A stretch of 64,000 bases of DNA, from the sequence record PV808484.1; one strand, given 5' to 3'. The position numbers and the translations under genes are program-made. A model generated the notes under the pieces. The model was not told where the DNA came from and did no database searches. It saw nothing but the letters and a program-made list of their open reading frames with translations. Below, piece after piece: positions 12,106 to 32,082 of this stretch (positions are counted from its first letter, which is position 1; every line of letters starts with the position of its first letter). This stretch comes from a phage.

Positions 12106-13083
12106 ATGGCAGCACCAAAATCATGGGAACAATATAAAGAAGAGTGTATACCAATAGCAGAGAGTAAGCAAATCCAAATCTTAGGATGGACGGGACAATG
12201 GAAAGGGGGCCACACAAAACTTGATTTGTTGTGCCATTGTGGTTATAAATGGGATACTACAAGTATTAACAGTTTTAAATGTGGTAGCGGTTGTCCACAA
12301 TGTAAGAGGGAGAAACAAACAATGTCCGACGATCAACATATTGCAGGTTTCTTTTCTACAGGGAAATTTAAGGAAGGCACTATCTTCACTAACACAGGAA
12401 CACGGGGTAAAGGATGTAGGCATATTACCTGGATGGTTGAATGTCCTGTTTGCTCTCATGATGAATATGTTCAAGCAGGTGTTTGTGATGGTAAATTTTA
12501 CTCTAAAGGACATCGCCTTAAACAAGGGTATATTCCGTGTCGTTGTGGGAAATATCAGTATACAGAAGACCAGATCACCTATAGGGTAAAAAAGGAAGTA
12601 GAAGGGAAAGGGTATGTCTGGGTAGATTGGATTACCAAACCCTCTTCTATAGGTAAGTTTAAATATCTTTGTCTTGTGCATGGTGAGCAGATAGGGAGTG
12701 CTCGTAATTTATTAAGCCTCGGTCAAGGTTGTCCACAGTGTGCTGGTCATAGTCAACAGCAATTATATATTAATATTGTTAAAGATAATGATATTATAGT
12801 TGCTCTTAAGTTTGGTATAGCTAAAGATAGCGATAGACGATTAAACGGTCAAAATAGCCGTAATCTGTTTTTTATGGAGCGTATTTGTTTATATGATTTT
12901 AGCACAGTGAAACAATGTAAGGCTGCTGAAAGAGCTATAAAGAAAAAATTAAAAACTGGTATTTTAACGGCAAGAGAGTTGAAAGATGGTTATACAGAAA
13001 CAGTAAGTGTTTCTGATTTGGAAAATCTTCAAAAAATTATTACACAATATGGTGGCAAGTTAGTATACAGTAAGGAGGTGTAA
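12106..13083 (+). CDS. multi-zinc-ribbon protein with GIY-YIG-like C-terminal motif, possible nuclease
   Basis: repeated CxC/CxxC modules (CHCGYKW, CGSGCPQC, CPVCSH, CRCGKY, GQGCPQC); C-terminal LYINIV...ALKFGIA...RRL...ERI. Confidence 0.5.
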   Translation: MAAPKSWEQYKEECIPIAESKQIQILGWTGQWKGGHTKLDLLCHCGYKWDTTSINSFKCGSGCPQCKREKQTMSDDQHIAGFFSTGKFKEGTIFTNTGTRGKGCRHITWMVECPVCSHDEYVQAGVCDGKFYSKGHRLKQGYIPCRCGKYQYTEDQITYRVKKEVEGKGYVWVDWITKPSSIGKFKYLCLVHGEQIGSARNLLSLGQGCPQCAGHSQQQLYINIVKDNDIIVALKFGIAKDSDRRLNGQNSRNLFFMERICLYDFSTVKQCKAAERAIKKKLKTGILTARELKDGYTETVSVSDLENLQKIITQYGGKLVYSKEV

Positions 13084-13635
13084 ATGCGGATTACTGATAA
13101 GTATGTGTTCTTCTTCTCGGCAAAAGATGAATTTAGCAACTGGTATCTATCATCTTTTATTGAACCTTTAGCTCCCAAGTATAATAATTCTATCACAAGT
13201 TCTGTCGAATTTACTTGTGTGGAACAATATATGATGTGGAGAAAAGCATGTTTATTTTATGATTACAACATTGCATCTTCTATTTTAACCGGAGATCTAA
13301 GATATACAGGAGAAAAAGAACAAGCATATTATAAGCGACTAGGTAGATTAGTTAAAGATTATGATGAAGATACCTGGACTTCTTTACGGGAGAAGATTGT
13401 CAAACGTGGTTTGTATCTTAAATACACACAAAATGAAGATCTCAAAAATAAACTTATAGCTTACGCAGATAAGGAGTTCGTAGAGGCAAGCCCTTATGAT
13501 TCTATTTATGGTATCAAAATGGGGATGTGGGATCGTGATGTTGAAAATAAGGATTGTTGGAAAGGACAAAATCTTTTAGGAAAATGGCATACAGACCTTG
13601 CTGTTTATCTAAAAGCACAATCTGATATTTCCTGA
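13084..13635 (+). CDS. NADAR (YbiA-like, DUF1768) domain protein
   Basis: FFFSAKDEFSNWY, FTCVEQYMMWRKA, GIKMGMWD...NLLGKWH match NADAR signature blocks; ATG overlaps upstream stop. Confidence 0.7.
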   Translation: MRITDKYVFFFSAKDEFSNWYLSSFIEPLAPKYNNSITSSVEFTCVEQYMMWRKACLFYDYNIASSILTGDLRYTGEKEQAYYKRLGRLVKDYDEDTWTSLREKIVKRGLYLKYTQNEDLKNKLIAYADKEFVEASPYDSIYGIKMGMWDRDVENKDCWKGQNLLGKWHTDLAVYLKAQSDIS

Positions 13636-13854
13636 TATTTTGAAAATTTTTATTTTTATAAAAAGGGGTGTGGGTTTCATGTACGGAAATCCACCCTCTG
13701 AATAATATATCCAGAGTAAGTATTATTCTGTACTCTGTTAATAAATTATTTAATTTGTTTGTTGGATTATGATATCTGGTTTTTAAAAGGCATACTATCT
13801 CTTAACTACTACTTATAACAGAACAGTAAAATCATTTTTATAAAAAGGACAAAA

Positions 13855-14051
13855 TTATTTAAAGTTTTTACAGATTTTTGGGTACAAATTTTGAAAATGA
13901 AAAGTTCAAGTTTGGTCAAAATTATTTAAAGTTTTTGTACGTATTTCCATCCAGATTTTGAAAATGAAAAGTTCAATTTTTTAAAAATTCCCCAGTTTAT
14001 TTAAAGTTTTTTTGCCTTTTTCCGTAGAAAAATCAAAAATGAAAAGTTCAA
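13855..14051. repeat. three imperfect tandem repeats (~67-73 bp) with two conserved boxes
   Basis: box A TTATTTAAAGTTTTT at 13855, 13923, 13997; box B TTTTGAAAATGAAAAGTTCAA at 13889, 13956, 14031. Confidence 0.6.
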
Positions 14052-14076
14052 TTTCGTGTTTTTATAGGTATGCGTA

Positions 14077-14190
14077 TGATAATCATTCTCATTTGTAAAT
14101 GAGAATCATTATCATTTAATTATGTAAGTGATAATCATTCTCAGTAAGAGAATGAGAATCATTAGCAAATGAGAATTTTCTCATTTAGAG
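14077..14190. promoter_or_regulatory. cluster of Fur-box-like palindromes
   Basis: TGATAATCATTCTCATT, AATGAGAATCATTATCATT, GTGATAATCATTCTCAG, AATGAGAATCATTAGC; compare Fur consensus GATAATGATAATCATTATC. Confidence 0.5.
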
Positions 14191-14447
14191 AATAACGCGT
14201 AGGGGTGGTGTTTGTCTCGCGCTCCCGTGTCCCCTCGCCATACAATAAGAATAGCATAACCAACAACAAAAGCAAGCGATTATTTTTATCTTTACATTTC
14301 TTTACAAATTTATTTTAGACGAGCTACCGGCGATCAACCTTCCAACCAGTGTGCCCTGGTATGTTAGCCCCGCCTTTACGCCGTGGGGGTGGCGCTTCCT
14401 CTTCTGTATGTAAAACAGTATAAGCCCGATCCCTGGGCTTGTCAAGA

Positions 14448-14714
14448 TTATTTTTTGTTTTCTTGCCAGGATAGGACACCTAACCAAAAATACATGTCGC
14501 CCCGCGCCCCTGGCGGGATCTTGCTTTCCCCGCCGCCACTGCAAGCCCATAGATAACCATTTGCGAACGTATCAAAATGATCTATTTCTTCCACCTTATG
14601 ATCGCCCAGGTTGAGAACGGTTTCAACCTTTAAGCCCGTTGCGCTTGCTACCTGGTGCACCGTGCCGCCTTGCCAGCCTAATGAGTGCATGAGGTGTAAA
14701 GTAGTATTTGTCAT
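14448..14714 (-). CDS. hypothetical protein (88 aa) in GC-rich segment
   Basis: internal ATG (MTNTTLHLMHSLGW...) in ORF-track frame; local GC roughly 50-60 percent versus 32-42 percent elsewhere; weak SD. Confidence 0.35.
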   Translation of the reverse strand: MTNTTLHLMHSLGWQGGTVHQVASATGLKVETVLNLGDHKVEEIDHFDTFANGYLWACSGGGESKIPPGARGDMYFWLGVLSWQENKK

Positions 14715-14824
14715 GGTATCGCCCTTTCTTTGATGTGCGCCCTGGTTGGCGCGGTAGAAAGATAATAGCCCCTTTCCTTTATAGATAGCAAGCAAAAAAG
14801 AAATGAAAAAAGATTAAAAAAGGG

Positions 14825-14853
14825 TTGACGTTCCTCACCTGGTAGCGTATTAT
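14825..14853 (+). promoter_or_regulatory. sigma70-like promoter
   Basis: TTGACG-17 nt-TATTAT. Confidence 0.45.
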
Positions 14854-14980
14854 TCATCTTGTCGAGGGGGGCGAGGCACAACGACAATAAACAAAAGGAG
14901 GGCGCAATGCAGGACGGGCAAAGGTGAGGATCTCCACAATCCACCGTCACAATAACATTACTTATAAAAGGTTGATAACG

Positions 14981-15076
14981 ATGATCAAGAAAGAAAACAG
15001 CTTGACGGTTGGAACGATTAACGCTATCATTTTCGCCGTTCCATTTTGGGTTGTAGTAGCGGTTATTATCTTTTAA
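14981..15076 (+). CDS. small hydrophobic peptide (31 aa), type I toxin-like
   Basis: MIKKENSLTVGTINAIIFAVPFWVVVAVIIF; about 120 nt leader containing a 6-codon mini-ORF (MQDGQR) with AAGGAGG SD. Confidence 0.35.
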   Translation: MIKKENSLTVGTINAIIFAVPFWVVVAVIIF

Positions 15077-15084
15077 AAATATTC

Positions 15085-15141
15085 TTGACAACGTTTTTTA
15101 ATCTGATAAGATGTATCACATAGGGCGGCAATAGTGCCGCT
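15085..15141 (+). promoter_or_regulatory. promoter plus 5'-UTR hairpin cassette
   Basis: TTGACA-16-TAAGAT then CATAGGGCGGCAATAGTGCCGCTCATA. Confidence 0.55.
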
Positions 15142-15164
15142 CATAACAGAAGAGAGAAATAATC

Positions 15165-15437
15165 ATGGCATCATATAGCGCATCAATGATCGTAATGGGT
15201 ATCACTGGTAAACCTATGCGCGGTGGCGGATCTTTCGCTAACATCAATATTGATGGACGTTTATCCCTGGACGCAGCGATCACAGTGGCACGGGAAACAT
15301 TTAAAAAAGAATGTAATTTCAATAAACAAGATTATCTCGGTTTCGCTATTGAAAAAACCGCGCGATTTGTGGATTATAAAAGCCCGAAAATGATCGACAC
15401 TACACTAAAAGCGAAAGATGTAGCGTTTTTGCTTTAA
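15165..15437 (+). CDS. hypothetical protein
   Basis: 90 aa ORF downstream of cassette. Confidence 0.55.
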   Translation: MASYSASMIVMGITGKPMRGGGSFANINIDGRLSLDAAITVARETFKKECNFNKQDYLGFAIEKTARFVDYKSPKMIDTTLKAKDVAFLL

Positions 15438-15440
15438 GAC

Positions 15441-15501
15441 TTGACACTGAAAAATAATTTGGTAATATATACCACATAAGGCGGGGAAATGGTTTCCCGC
15501 C
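15441..15501 (+). promoter_or_regulatory. promoter plus 5'-UTR hairpin cassette
   Basis: TTGACA...TAATAT then GGCGGGGAAATGGTTTCCCGCC. Confidence 0.55.
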
Positions 15502-15526
15502 AAGCCATCAAAGAAAGGGTAACACA

Positions 15527-15889
15527 ATGAGCAAGCAAATCAATACTATCATGTTAAACCTGGTATCTTTCCGCGATGACGTGAAAAATCTTTCGCGTGA
15601 TGCAGTGGATGCACGGATCGAAAGCTATCGCACACAGATCGCAACATTACCGTTAAAACGTGATCAACATGCCGCTAATATGATGCTTGATGCTATGATT
15701 AAAAAGATGATTCAATGTGATCTTACTCTGGCTTATGAATATGCTGGCGATCTTTTTGTAACATATAACAAGCCCGTTCCAGGTATGAGCACCACGGAAG
15801 AATTGCATGCCTTAAATCTGCGACAAGATGCATGGGATAACATGCGCCGTGTTATGGTATGGGTAGAAAGCGGTAAAATTTACGAATAA
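15527..15889 (+). CDS. hypothetical protein
   Basis: 120 aa ORF; AAAGGG SD. Confidence 0.55.
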   Translation: MSKQINTIMLNLVSFRDDVKNLSRDAVDARIESYRTQIATLPLKRDQHAANMMLDAMIKKMIQCDLTLAYEYAGDLFVTYNKPVPGMSTTEELHALNLRQDAWDNMRRVMVWVESGKIYE

Positions 15890-18163: not shown

Positions 18164-18258
18164 AGGAGACATAAAAATGAAACATCGTTCGACCTATCTC
18201 ACAAAACGTTTTAGCTTAGATCATAAATTGGGCTATTACGGAAGAAATAGAAAATAAT

Positions 18259-18318
18259 TTGACAACGTTTTAAATTAGTGTAAGATATATCACATAGGGC
18301 GGGAAATGGTTTCCCGCC
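18259..18318 (+). promoter_or_regulatory. promoter plus 5'-UTR hairpin cassette
   Basis: TTGACAACGTTTT...TAAGAT then GGGCGGGAAATGGTTTCCCGCC. Confidence 0.55.
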
Positions 18319-18340: not shown

Positions 18341-18568
18341 ATGGCTATCATTATTGTTCGCGTATCCGGTACGGTTGGAAGCTCCCAGGTAGTAGCAGTT
18401 ATCACAGAGAAGAAAGGGGATGATCTTCACTCTTCCTTGAATAGTTGGGCGGTCGCTAATTTTGGTCAGTGGTCGAGCGTCGAGTATATCGAATCCTACC
18501 AGGTGCCGACGATTAGCCTAACCGATTTAAATGTTGATCGCTTGTTGTGCCTGGATGGATTAAACTAA
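18341..18568 (+). CDS. hypothetical protein
   Basis: 75 aa ORF. Confidence 0.55.
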   Translation: MAIIIVRVSGTVGSSQVVAVITEKKGDDLHSSLNSWAVANFGQWSSVEYIESYQVPTISLTDLNVDRLLCLDGLN

Positions 18569-18576
18569 AAATAATC

Positions 18577-18633
18577 TTGACAAGATAACTAAAATCAGTA
18601 AAATGTAATGCATAGGGCGGCAATAGTGCCGCT
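18577..18633 (+). promoter_or_regulatory. promoter plus 5'-UTR hairpin cassette
   Basis: TTGACA-16-TAAAAT then CATAGGGCGGCAATAGTGCCGCTCATA. Confidence 0.55.
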
Positions 18634-18655
18634 CATAGTAAGAGAGATTATCAAA

Positions 18656-21964: not shown

Positions 21965-22022
21965 TTGACAGCAGAAAAACAACGTAGTAAAGTTTATCAC
22001 ATAGGGCGGCAATAGTGCCGCT
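21965..22022 (+). promoter_or_regulatory. promoter plus 5'-UTR hairpin cassette
   Basis: TTGACA-17-TAAAGT then CATAGGGCGGCAATAGTGCCGCTCATA. Confidence 0.55.
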
Positions 22023-22044
22023 CATAACAGAAGAGAAACAAATC

Positions 22045-22215
22045 ATGATCCCGACTATGTTTTATGTATCGCGCAAAGGTCACAATATTTTTTGGTCTGA
22101 AGATTTAAATGAAGCCATGACGTTTGCCCGTGATCGTGTTGCTATCGGTGGCGTTAACATTACTGTAACCGATGAAAATGGCATTGAATACTATAACGGC
22201 GACGATGAAGAGTAA
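22045..22215 (+). CDS. small protein (56 aa)
   Basis: start at ATG (MIPTMF) downstream of cassette. Confidence 0.45.
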   Translation: MIPTMFYVSRKGHNIFWSEDLNEAMTFARDRVAIGGVNITVTDENGIEYYNGDDEE

Positions 22216-22260: not shown

Positions 22261-22398
22261 ATGAAAACTTTCAACGCAACAGCATCAACAATTGGTTATA
22301 TTATCACCGTGCAAGCTATTGATCTAGTAGCTGCAACAAACAAGATTAAAAACATGATCCCTGTAGGCAGTGATTTTTCCGTTTGGGAAGTAAAATAA
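22261..22398 (+). CDS. small protein (45 aa)
   Basis: MKTFNATASTIGYIITVQAIDLVAATNKIKNMIPVGSDFSVWEVK; hairpin GGCGGGGAGTATTCCCGCC upstream. Confidence 0.35.
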   Translation: MKTFNATASTIGYIITVQAIDLVAATNKIKNMIPVGSDFSVWEVK

Positions 22399-22401
22399 AT
22401 C

Positions 22402-22463
22402 TTGACAGTGATTTGTTATTTGATAAGATGTACTACGTAGGGCGTGGCAATAAGGCAACGCCC
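22402..22463 (+). promoter_or_regulatory. promoter plus 5'-UTR hairpin cassette
   Basis: TTGACA-17-TAAGAT then GGGCGTGGCAATAAGGCAACGCCC. Confidence 0.5.
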
Positions 22464-25109: not shown

Positions 25110-25124
25110 ATAACATTTCATACC

Positions 25125-25150
25125 AGGGCGCACAAAGCGCCCTTTCTTTT
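25125..25150 (+). terminator. rho-independent terminator
   Basis: AGGGCGC-ACAAA-GCGCCCT then TTCTTTTT. Confidence 0.65.
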
Positions 25151-25357
25151 TACCTAAATAAAGATGATAGCTTTTACCTATCAAAAACATTCACCGAAAA
25201 AAGTGAATAGATCGCGGTATCGAGCTAATCAAGGAGCAGATGAACAACCATACCATGAAGATCATAAGGCGCTTACAACGTGTTTTAAACCGCTTATTTT
25301 TAATTTCTCCATGTAACTATCTGGCAAAAACAGCCTTTTTCGTGTCTTTCCTCTTAA

Positions 25358-25430
25358 GTGATAATCATTCTTATTTATAGCTGATTATTTATGCAATAAA
25401 CTGCATAATGCAATAATGATAATCATTCTT
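25358..25430. promoter_or_regulatory. Fur-box-like palindromes
   Basis: GTGATAATCATTCTTA and AATAATGATAATCATTCTT; the latter 16/19 to Fur consensus. Confidence 0.5.
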
Positions 25431-25440
25431 AACTTATGAC

Positions 25441-25790
25441 CATCTAACCTATAAAATAATAAGTTATCTAACTAAATTAAAGCTAATTATTTCACCTTTA
25501 TTTATAACTTACTGTTACTATCTCATTGATAACCTTATATTAAACAACAATAACTAATATAAATCATTACTAAGCTAAATATAATCTATCTAACCTTTAA
25601 AACTATAACTATAATCTATCGAATTGTTGCACAAAGTAACTATTAAATTGTTAGTAACATTACTAAATAATTCATATCCTATCTATTTATGATCTAATCT
25701 TTACTTTCCTATCTATTACCTAAATAATCCTATCATACAGTTACCATTTCATGTAATAATCATTTCATACAATAACTATAACAAGAAATA
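25441..25790. repeat. G-depleted AT-rich low-complexity tract
   Basis: about 4 percent G on plus strand; degenerate ATCTATC / CTAACCT motifs. Confidence 0.55.
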
Positions 25791-25808
25791 TAATTCGCAA
25801 GCGTATCA

Positions 25809-25982
25809 TTAGCAGCCTATGCCGGACACATAGGCGGCTAATAATAACGCAACTACACACCCCACATAATAACCATCACCGATAGTTATTATTTGTGCTT
25901 ATGTAGCTTGCAACAATTGCAAGCGCAACAATATACATGGTATATTGTATCCCTTACATTGTTGCGGTGCGTTATTATTAGC
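25809..25982. repeat. nested inverted repeats (structured noncoding element)
   Basis: hairpin TTAGCAGCCTATG-CCGGACA-CATAGGCGGCTAA; palindrome GCTTGCAA-CAA-TTGCAAGC; 14-bp inverted pair GCTAATAATAACGC / GCGTTATTATTAGC. Confidence 0.5.
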
Positions 25983-26296
25983 TAATGTTTGGAACATTGG
26001 CTATAATATAAGCTAAATAATAAGCTATTCAATAATAAACATAATGAATAATGACACTGATGATCATAATGCGCCACCTTCCAGGGGGCGCTATGTGAAC
26101 ACAAAGAAATCTTTCTTGTCAAGAAAAATATTAACACTATTGCGCAAAATTATTTATGTCTGAATAGATGATTTTTCATACTATTGTTATTATTTATCGG
26201 CCCTAACTATTGCCTATTTGTTGAGCCTACTTTCTTAAAAGCGCAATAAATCAGAATTATCTTGATTTTTAGGGTGTTTTATAGTATAGAAAATAT

Positions 26297-26317
26297 GCAA
26301 ATGATAATCATTATCAG
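26297..26317. promoter_or_regulatory. Fur-box-like site (near consensus)
   Basis: GCAAATGATAATCATTATCAG; 16 contiguous matches to Fur consensus. Confidence 0.55.
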
Positions 26318-26481
26318 CTATCTTCCACGGGTGGCACTATTTCACGCAGGATCATTTCATTTGGCAAGGTGTATATAGATGTTTAGACTTGCCAAGCCAT
26401 TGATTTACTTAGAATTTATCTGTTTTGTTGTGAGTAGTACCTTTCTTGCTCAGAAAATAATCAAAAGTCTTATAAGTCATT

Positions 26482-26513
26482 GAATGATAATGCAAATGAT
26501 AATTATTCTCATT
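26482..26513. promoter_or_regulatory. Fur-box-like site
   Basis: GAATGATAATGCAAATGATAATTATTCTCATT. Confidence 0.45.
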
Positions 26514-26872
26514 GATATTTGAGGGGGACGGTCGGCAGAAATCGGGGGGCGCTGAAAATCGCGTTAAGCACCTCTCGCAAGCGAGCAGTATTTTGCGGCA
26601 AGTTATTGATATTATTGGCTTTACGCTTATGGAAAGGGGGTGTGTCGAAATAAATCGGGTATACCGGAAAATTTTTGTGGCATAGATATTTATTTGTCTA
26701 TATTATGTACAAAGGGGTGTGTTAAAAATATTAGGTATATATAGAATAATTGATAGGGAAATCCTATACTAATTCCTCCATTAATGATGTTTCTATGTTG
26801 CTGTTCTTGTAACAGATGAAAAGACGCTGTATGATGTGTAGCATGAAACGTAAATTTATAAAGGAGTCTGAT

Positions 26873-31396: not shown

Positions 31397-32082
31397 TGAA
31401 AGAGATTATGTTTGAAGGGCATCGTTACGAAGTTCCAGACAATGCAAATTTCATGGCTCGTGATATCACTGGAGATGTGTTCTGGTTTGAAGATGAACCT
31501 GTGTTTTCTTCGAACAAACACTGGTTTTCACAACAATCTTCTTCGGAAAATATGACTTTTGGCTACGTAGAGCCTAAAGTGCGCTGCAAAGCAGCTTCTT
31601 CTTTGGTAAAAATTTCCCAAGATGATCAAGAAAATACTCCAGATGTTGTTAGTGCACTACTGAAGTACATTGCAGAACTTGAGAAGAAAATTAAAGAAGC
31701 AGAAACTAAGGTGAAAGCACGATCAGCCATCATTGAAGCTATGTCTGAACGTATCTTAGAGCTAGAAGATTTGTGTGGAGAGGCTTATCAAGTGGTTGGT
31801 GCGCTGGCTTGTGAAGCACAAATGTTTGAAACTTCAGAACAAGTTTCACATATGTTAGATAATTTGAGTGAATGTAAAATGATTCATGATGATGTATTGC
31901 CATTTTGTTGCAATGTTAACAAAACAGAGCAAACACAAGATTCAGAAACAGTTTATGTTCCGCTAATGTGTGTTCCAGATCATCTAAAAGGTGTATTCTC
32001 TTGTAAATGGTCGCTGTTGAGCGTTACTAATTGTGGTGAAAACTATTCTGCCAACATTGAATTGCTAAAACACGTTAAATAA
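31396..32082 (+). CDS. hypothetical protein
   Basis: 228 aa; central coiled-coil-like segment. Confidence 0.55.
   Translation: MKEIMFEGHRYEVPDNANFMARDITGDVFWFEDEPVFSSNKHWFSQQSSSENMTFGYVEPKVRCKAASSLVKISQDDQENTPDVVSALLKYIAELEKKIKEAETKVKARSAIIEAMSERILELEDLCGEAYQVVGALACEAQMFETSEQVSHMLDNLSECKMIHDDVLPFCCNVNKTEQTQDSETVYVPLMCVPDHLKGVFSCKWSLLSVTNCGENYSANIELLKHVK

Follow-up and report, generated by a model that had tools for sequence, protein, structure and literature searches.

What does a tandem array of three roughly 70-base-pair (bp) repeats do in the noncoding DNA of a virulent phage? The array in question spans positions 13850–14054 of the 64-kb stretch of sequence record PV808484.1 that we analysed (‘the window’, 64,000 nucleotides (nt) in all), which comes from a phi92-like myovirus of Escherichia coli (genus Justusliebigvirus in the subfamily Stephanstirmvirinae). 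An initial annotation had described the repeats as iteron-like and suggested a replication origin or a protein-binding array. As judged by its layout and conservation, the array is likely to be a double-stranded DNA (dsDNA) site for a lineage-specific phage protein. That it is where a protein binds and the DNA unwinds in a replication origin activated by transcription and gated by Fur is a possibility that we put forward tentatively. The repeats, the conservation of their layout, the low duplex stability, the matches to Fur and CpxR motifs and the conserved promoters are seen directly; protein binding, promoter usage and any role in replication are what we infer from the sequence.

Re-examination of the repeats upheld most of their first description. 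There are indeed three tandem units at a spacing of 67 and 75 bp, and each carries an exact copy of box A (TTATTTAAAGTTTTT; at 13855, 13922 and 13997) followed, at an offset of 39 bp in all three units, by an exact copy of the 16-nt core of box B (AAAATGAAAAGTTCAA; at 13894, 13961 and 14036). Box B in its full 21-nt form, which had been reported to alternate with box A three times, is exact in units 1 and 2 and has diverged in unit 3, where it reads AATCAAAAATGAAAAGTTCAA. With up to two mismatches allowed, box A has a single further site in the 64 kb (two mismatches, at 32068) and the box B core has no further match in the window; 0.29 matches to the core are expected by chance, and three were reached in one of 100 shuffles. 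A repeat search returned a 79-nt unit in three copies at 72–73% identity, and Tandem Repeats Finder (TRF) a period of 67 with a score of 185. The array is, as had been stated, AT-rich (77.5% AT) and noncoding, with no open reading frame (ORF) of at least 40 amino acids (aa) found within 13636–14300. The short repeat ATTTTTATAAAAAGG, placed earlier at about 13651 and 13836, is a pair of exact 15-mers, and related T-run/A-run palindromes lie at 13977–13991 (the boundary of units 2 and 3) and at 14058–14068 (past unit 3). The elements of the array and the short repeats to its left are:

13652–13666: short repeat ATTTTTATAAAAAGG, copy 1, a T-run/A-run palindrome of the exact 15-mer pair, recurring at unit boundaries
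13834–13848: short repeat ATTTTTATAAAAAGG, copy 2, immediately preceding unit 1
13850–13916: repeat unit 1, with box A at 13855–13869 and box B at 13889–13909
13917–13991: repeat unit 2, with box A at 13922–13936 and box B at 13956–13976, ending in TTTTTTAAAAATTCC
13992–14054: repeat unit 3, with box A at 13997–14011 and the box B core at 14036–14051, the 5′ part of box B having diverged

Several ways of reading the boxes as expression signals were discarded. Box A as a general promoter motif, with a likeness to the T4-type late promoter (TTTAAATA), was rejected because the motif is restricted to the array; a sigma-70 promoter repeated in each unit, because conserved −35 and −10 elements are absent from the three units; and small peptides starting at the ATG of box B, because this ATG is not kept in relatives.

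Within Justusliebigvirus the array is present at full length and 91–99% identity in 56 records, and among seven close genomes it has 4 variable positions in ~205 bp, as compared to roughly 19 in the 130 bp to its left. The segment around it, window 13000–15600, matches phage EmilieFrey (Bas61) at 98% identity; of the 146 phage records that match this segment, 51 do so over at least 80% of its length, at 96–98% identity. Comparison with syntenic regions in related phages, which the initial annotation had named as a check, took us beyond the genus. We compared the homologous gaps of Phapecoctavirus (L004, L009 and L010), the Klebsiella Stephanstirmvirinae group (L005 and L006), Seunavirus (PVP-SE1, L007, and L013), Certrevirus (L011, L017, L022 and phiTE, L025), Henunavirus (L012) and Vequintavirus (MaxTheCat, L036), as well as of several IMG/VR contigs. 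At the same place, six other genera of Stephanstirmvirinae and Vequintavirinae carry about three tandem units of 60–80 bp, with spacings of 61/81, 74/71, 78/63 and 65/74, so that seven genera in all share a layout of three units with two boxes each. The exception among the compared loci is FBKp34 (L006), which has a different, two-copy repeat; in Phapecoctavirus L004 the three-unit pattern is less clear, with three box-B-like copies spaced 48/90.

The units of these relatives have conserved boxes at a fixed internal offset, and the sequences of the boxes are genus-specific. Box A is recognisable only within Stephanstirmvirinae, where the linkers cannot be aligned across genera, and the Vequintavirinae units follow the consensus GGtTCTCGATCG ... 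CGTAT with two GATC per unit. A scan of IMG/VR for box B yielded, among the matches listed, only unrelated single chance matches. That the boxes differ among phages of the same host argues for a binding factor that is phage-encoded and co-evolving, and not a host protein.

Physical properties of the array point to recognition as DNA. No unit folds better than dinucleotide shuffles on either strand (unit z-scores of −2.1 to +1.1), the whole 13640–14070 region scoring −1.1 and −0.7, and the box B-like core TTTTCATTTTC stands in opposite orientations, relative to the GC-rich module described below, in the window and in Vequintavirinae; together, the missing fold signal and the opposite orientations favour dsDNA recognition. 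The array contains 20 A/T tracts of at least 4 nt, and in AA/TT periodicity near 11 bp it ranks at the 99.5th percentile of the window. In duplex stability, the segment 13700–14200 comes second from the bottom in the window; directly beside it lies the most stable segment, 14200–14700. The suggestion of a protein-binding array is thus well supported, albeit indirectly: the layout is maintained across the seven genera with genus-specific boxes, a fixed offset and no unit fold.

The surroundings are where the initial annotation was incomplete, since the most informative neighbours, a Fur-box cluster directly to the right of the array and a conserved GC-rich module, had been missed. From left to right, the conserved locus of ~0.8 kb consists of GATATTT repeats, the array, the Fur cluster, a GC hairpin, a CpxR-type box with the promoter P2(−), a GC-rich domain and the promoter P1(−), and its flanking elements are better conserved than the array itself. 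The parts outside the array are:

13622–13641, plus strand: GATATTT direct repeats (CTGATATTTCCTGATATTTTG), TRF period 10, overlapping the stop codon of the NADAR gene
14072–14186: candidate Fur-box cluster, four sites at 14072, 14095, 14124 and 14148, each matching 15–16 of the 19 positions of GATAATGATAATCATTATC
14188–14193, plus strand: conserved hexamer GAGAAT, from the alignment; CAGAAT in relatives
14197–14245: GC-rich hairpin with GGTGnTTGTCTC as its conserved loop, of all pieces of the locus the most widely conserved; duplicated in rV5-like phages
14248–14275, minus strand: candidate sigma-70 promoter P2(−), with −35 TTGCTT at 14275–14270, a 16-nt spacer and −10 TATTCT at 14253–14248
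14291–14305, minus strand: CpxR-type motif GTAAA-N5-GTAAA, just upstream of P2(−)
14320–14412: highly conserved GC-rich domain, a hairpin with a compensatory base-pair change
14417–14445, minus strand: strong sigma-70 promoter P1(−), TTGACA-17-TATACT, with an A/T-rich upstream stretch
14448–14714, minus strand: 88-aa ORF (phrog_19316), tied to the locus in Stephanstirmvirinae and some Certrevirus phages

To search for Fur boxes we used as query the 19-bp Fur consensus GATAATGATAATCATTATC. Sites matching at least 14 of the 19 positions number 29, as compared to 5.1 ± 2.3 in simulations, and a search with a 15-mer gave 22 matches where 4.7 are expected. Each of the four main matches of the cluster has an overlapping partner 6 bp away, and a fifth palindrome (AAATGAGAATTTTCTCATTT, 14167–14186) is homologous to the one Fur box that every relative has; the relatives carry between one and at least four boxes. 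Chen et al. describe sites 6 bases apart, in clusters of up to ~140 bp, for genuine Fur operators of E. coli (PMC2189734). In its match to the consensus and in its overlapping sites at 6 bp, the cluster at 14072–14186 has the sequence features of a Fur operator. The hexamer at 14188–14193 could be the −10 element of a plus-strand promoter overlapped by a Fur box, the Vequintavirinae version of which reads TTGAAT-N18-CAGAAT, or, equally, the U-rich tail after a minus-strand hairpin.

The GC-rich module (~215 bp, 14197–14412) was found in 360 phage records from both subfamilies and in one contig of a metagenome-assembled genome among 185,579 species genomes. A host origin of the locus was rejected, there being no similarity to it in 5,426 E. 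coli genomes or in plasmids. Of the two minus-strand promoters, P1(−) agrees with the consensus at 11 of 12 positions, and its hexamers are kept in all genera, with a varying spacer; the hexamers of P2(−), read off the alignment, are conserved across genera (TTGCCA/TTGCAA/TTGATC ... TATATT/TATTAT), with a spacer that cannot be aligned. Both promoters point leftward at the array, into the ORF-free stretch. The motif GTAAA-N5-GTAAA, a CpxR recognition motif (PMC9600279), has its sole exact match in the window here, which with 0.39 expected by chance is in itself not significant; 17 of the 18 aligned sequences nevertheless preserve it, and the remaining one, Erwinia phage L012, retains one GTAAA only. 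The module as a whole folds no better than shuffles (z-scores of 0.15 and 1.38), RNAalifold found few covarying pairs, helices are re-shaped between lineages, and neither G.U pairs nor minimum free energies on the two strands point clearly to one strand. One clearly compensatory pair lies in the 14320–14412 domain (columns 50/72), with G-C in 11 sequences and A-U in the other 7. The case for a structured RNA is thin, so the module may consist mainly of densely packed promoter and regulator sites. In MaxTheCat (L036), the Fur box, -10-like hexamer and hairpin with the GGTGnTTGTCTC loop occur twice in tandem at 1290–1520, and the rest of the module is missing; in L028 (IMG/VR 2974574029), an inserted ORF replaces the left half of the module.

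GATATTT is present in 1–5 copies in 15 of 15 loci of both subfamilies, with at least two copies in 14 of the 15, always in one orientation and usually 10–13 bp apart; the window copies, at 13623 and 13633 (10 bp apart), mark the left edge of the conserved locus. The repeats are conserved whatever the upstream gene, and they are spaced more like iterons than the 70-bp units are. On the right, the phrog_19316 protein is modelled by AlphaFold2 as five helices (pLDDT 94) with no significant structural neighbour, and neither its sequence nor its fold gave a DNA-binding or Rep match. In Certrevirus L017 and L022 the homologue is encoded, relative to the module, on the other strand, and in Seunavirus an unrelated small ORF takes its place.

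Taken together, these elements suggest the following model. Each unit, acting as double-stranded DNA, would present box A and box B, 39 bp apart, as the two halves of a site for a sequence-specific protein that the phage lineage encodes, set in easily melted, A-tract-phased DNA. Host RNA polymerase would start at the right-hand promoters and transcribe leftward into the Fur boxes and the array; transcription and the protein on the three units would together open the AT-rich DNA, and phage DNA replication would start. Iron-loaded Fur, sitting between promoter and array, would gate this transcription-activated origin. The replication origin proposed by the initial annotation remains plausible because the array lies in A-tract-phased DNA of low stability, conserved promoters point into the ORF-free stretch and many repeat motifs surround it. 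Against the epithet ‘iteron-like’ speaks that the spacing is 67–75 bp and not ~22 bp, that no initiator gene was recognised next to the array, and that the array has no DnaA, IHF or GATC sites.

A number of observations weigh against an origin. Searches of 13600–15200 for DnaA boxes (up to one mismatch), of the array for the IHF consensus and of 13600–14331 for GATC found nothing, and the 67–75-bp spacing is, as said, unlike that of iterons. No recognisable initiator, helicase loader or primase is adjacent, the neighbours being NADAR, a CapR/T5orf172 endonuclease and small proteins of unknown function. The GC skew of the predicted leftward transcript is only +0.05 to +0.19 in 18 sequences, which is no strong R-loop signature, and cumulative GC skew tracks gene orientation and does not mark the array; skew analysis was likewise uninformative in the rV5 genome (PMC3606486). 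Finally, if the hexamer at 14188–14193 were the −10 of a rightward, Fur-repressed promoter, the array could be the upstream regulatory region of that promoter.

This last point leads to the main rival reading of the array, which we consider rather unlikely, namely that it holds activator, silencer or bent-DNA sites upstream of one or more Fur-controlled promoters in or beside the Fur cluster. The promoters would drive a conserved noncoding RNA from the GC-rich module, and the units would recruit a phage regulator or an H-NS-like nucleoid protein for timing. The Vequintavirinae arrangement agrees with this, as the Fur box there lies between the rightward −35 and −10 (TTGAAT-N18-CAGAAT) and the array 60–110 bp upstream; so does the overlap with sigma-70 promoters of ~83% of E. 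coli Fur clusters (PMC2189734), along with the AT-rich, phased DNA of the array and some base-pair covariation in the module. However, the homologous −35 in the window is poor (GCAAAT), the module lacks a fold signal, an Rfam family and a clear strand preference, and a 200-bp upstream array of three units would be unusual for a simple Fur-repressed promoter. The repeats could also act as RNA, within a leftward noncoding transcript of ~0.75 kb from P1(−)/P2(−) in which three A/U-rich units bind or titrate an RNA-binding protein or serve as a decoy against host defence. Conserved leftward promoters aimed at the array with no ORF downstream favour such a transcript, and the relative phiTE uses a tandem-repeat RNA (pseudo-ToxI) against ToxIN (PMC3475682). 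Against it stand the units without a fold signal on either strand, their length of 67–75 nt, unlike the 36-nt repeats of type III antitoxins, and the orientation of box B relative to the module, reversed between Vequintavirinae and the window, which fits DNA recognition better. When the ToxI repeat was searched for, its best match agreed at 22 of 36 positions and lies elsewhere than the array. Moreover, the phiTE pseudo-ToxI is at a different locus, beside tRNA and terminase genes, and the hairpin at 13664–13700 is plus-strand-specific and a poor leftward terminator. We consider a role as RNA quite unlikely; the link to pseudo-ToxI itself was rejected on account of the different locus, and the units are unlike the 34–45-nt, pseudoknot-forming repeats of type III antitoxins.

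Other alternatives turn on where the genome ends. For the Justusliebigvirus phage BME3, direct terminal repeats (DTRs) of 342 bp have been reported on the basis of PhageTerm (PMC12210895). The BME3 record (PP239276) starts at window 26565 and runs leftward, its annotated repeat maps to 26297–26638, and the physical end maps to window ~26224–26638, a position that rests on one PhageTerm report. The end of the record (146169–147371) repeats its first 788 bp and then its first 342 bp again; as deposited, the terminus resembles a duplication from assembly or editing more than it does a clean DTR. In the window, the genome end thus falls not at the array, which lies ~12 kb (11.7–12.5 kb, ~8% of the genome) away, but in the second large noncoding region (25110–26815). 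That region contains the best Fur-box matches of the window (26297, 17/19; 25412, 16/19; 26492, 15/19), many short tandem repeats (25390–26050) and the window’s least stable DNA (25.4–25.7 kb). In four rV5-like records, the homologous element lies 11.5–12.1 kb from the record start.

These distances are reminiscent of T5, in which the 1.2-kb Repeat Region 3 holds conserved repeats of unassigned function and the first-step-transfer region makes up 7.9% of the genome (10.1101/866236). The array could accordingly belong to a DNA-entry or genome-organisation site akin to Repeat Region 3 and to T5’s injection stop signal, that is, to a large untranslated repeat region ~8% from the genome end that separates the first block of small early genes from the rest. 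Besides the matching distance (11.7–12.5 kb from the BME3-derived end) and the conserved maze of repeats in T5, the Fur-box-like palindromes of the T5-like phage EC100 speak for this, as they match the window cluster at 76%; we take this as a resemblance and not as functional homology. In EC100 (L033), the untranslated segment 1360–1680 at the inner end of the terminal repeat has a near-perfect LexA-type box (TACTGTATATTTATACAGTA), two DnaA boxes (TGTGGATAA), five to six such palindromes and then GTGCAAATCCGACA repeats; in T5-like phages this region is situated next to the first-step-transfer boundary at 7.9%. We nevertheless regard a T5-like entry site as improbable: we know of no report of two-step injection in these phages, our locus lacks the paired DnaA boxes within large inverted repeats by which the T5 region, described without mention of Fur (10.1101/866236), is defined, and the distance match could be coincidence. 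Moreover, the BME3 record is internally duplicated at its end and circular permutation has been reported for phiTE (PMC3475682), which leaves the location of the end insecure across the group. Less probable still is a pac recognition site, on which the small terminase would assemble on repeated bent DNA. Repeated bent sites are typical of pac and cosB regions, and a few GenBank records start or end within 0.1–0.6 kb of the array; record starts are, however, mostly arbitrary, no terminase genes are nearby (in the window and likewise in phiTE), and the genome end with its DTR, placed by PhageTerm some 12 kb away, argues against packaging from the array. It is very unlikely, and of all these readings the one to which we give least credence, that the array is a neutral, functionless tandem duplication in junk DNA. 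AT-rich noncoding DNA does slip easily, yet seven genera share the three-unit layout with unit sequences too diverged to be aligned, and the boxes are exact and their offset fixed while the linkers vary.

The genomic setting completes the picture. The array lies inside an ORF-poor gap of 1.5 kb that runs from the end of a NADAR/YbiA-like gene (13084–13635, plus strand; Pfam NADAR, E 2.5e-36), the left border of the gap, to the next plus-strand early gene at 15165, within a 30-kb block of small plus-strand genes (8.9–39.3 kb), many of which have their own sigma-70 promoter. The NADAR transcript would end in the following structure:

13664–13700, plus strand: stem-loop at the 3′ end of the NADAR-gene transcript (dG −20.9, z −3.4)

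Read on the minus strand, the same segment has a dG of −11.8 and a z of −0.8, and a leftward terminator at this place was rejected, the hairpin being plus-strand-specific. Upstream of the locus, with the NADAR gene in between, lies the CapR/T5orf172 endonuclease gene (12106–13083), whose size differs among relatives. The early-gene promoter at 15074–15167 is a strong sigma-70 promoter (TTGACA-16-TAAGAT) with a conserved leader hairpin, and further promoter-plus-leader copies at 18251–18305, 18566–18647, 21995–22047 and 22391–22452 each precede a small early gene. A search for tRNA and tmRNA genes found nothing; Rfam gave no match at the gathering threshold in the window, and only chance-level matches in 13500–15300. 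The ‘Campylobacter phage’ records MG065639, MG065689, MG065650 and others are 96–98% identical to these coliphages and are probably mislabelled or contaminants.

Previous descriptions have passed over this locus. The rV5 genome paper marks only a ‘non-coding’ box (PMC3606486), and in some records the array is annotated merely as ‘repeat_region’. Our literature searches, covering Fur boxes, promoters, origins and transcriptomes in these phages, returned nothing on the locus; as far as the literature could be searched, neither the three-unit architecture nor the Fur cluster, the CpxR-type motif or the conserved module has been described.

Why does the locus matter? The phi92/rV5 group is large and includes many therapy candidates. 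The locus provides a concrete, conserved candidate for an origin or control region in hundreds of genomes, with lineage-specific boxes as a handle for finding the binding protein, and the near-consensus Fur operators beside the array predict iron dependence. One may go further and speculate, although we hold it unlikely in this full form, that the locus is a noncoding sensor of host physiology – iron through Fur, envelope stress through the CpxR-type box – coupled to an array that starts or licenses replication or stepwise entry. Such a sensor would span the virulent phi92-like and rV5-like phages and, by analogy, T5-like phages, and with Fur boxes inside the terminal repeat, iron status may gate the first minutes of infection. 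Should Fur and CpxR indeed act here, lytic phages would sense host iron and envelope state through cis sites; this would be relevant for phage efficacy at iron-limited infection sites, and might also explain the long-puzzling repeat region of T5.

How, then, does the locus compare with known systems? The candidate Fur cluster resembles the iucA, fhuF and fepA-fes operators in having four to five near-consensus sites with 6-bp overlaps over ~115 bp and promoter-like hexamers inside. It differs from them in that it resides in a virulent phage, controls no iron-uptake gene or indeed any ORF, and lies between a repeat array and a conserved GC-rich module. With the centromere-like repeats of F (sopC, 43-bp units) and P1 (parS, box A/box B) the array shares tandem units of tens of bp with a protein-binding motif and bipartite boxes; the differences are the lack of parA/parB-type genes at the phage locus, the virulent lifestyle, the number of units (three) and the unrelated boxes.

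The likeness to T5 Repeat Region 3 extends to an untranslated region exceeding 1 kb that is dense with direct repeats and palindromes and is conserved in the family while neighbouring genes vary, to Fur-box-like palindromes with detectable sequence similarity and, if the BME3-derived end is correct, to the position ~8% from the genome end. Unlike our locus, the T5 region has eight paired DnaA boxes and large inverted repeats; the terminal repeats of T5 are 10 kb as compared to the 342 bp reported for Justusliebigvirus.

Among replication origins, the iteron type (lambda ori, P1 oriR, plasmid oriV) likewise combines lineage-specific direct repeats with easily melted AT-rich DNA, has further repeat motifs around and has host-factor sites built into the same region. 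The array shows at least three direct repeats of one site and an adjacent AT-rich stretch that could serve as an unwinding element; it shows neither a site spacing of 17–22 bp, nor a cognate initiator gene nearby, nor DnaA, IHF and GATC sites. Its units are 67–75 bp long, bipartite and only three in number, whereas iterons are 17–22-bp sites at ~22-bp spacing. Host-factor sites of the Fur or CpxR type are, to our knowledge, without precedent in any described origin.

Transcription takes part in initiation at lambda ori, T4 oriF/oriG, the T7 primary origin and the ColE1 origin. From such promoter-plus-unwinding origins our locus differs in that host sigma-70-type promoters and Fur and CpxR-type sites precede the AT-rich DNA, the AT-rich part is occupied by the three-unit array, and the G-skew expected of an R-loop is weak. 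Its likeness to them, and to the activation of lambda ori by transcription, would consist in conserved promoters that read into an ORF-free, AT-rich stretch of low stability, and in a GC-rich segment that is predicted to be transcribed ahead of the AT-rich part.

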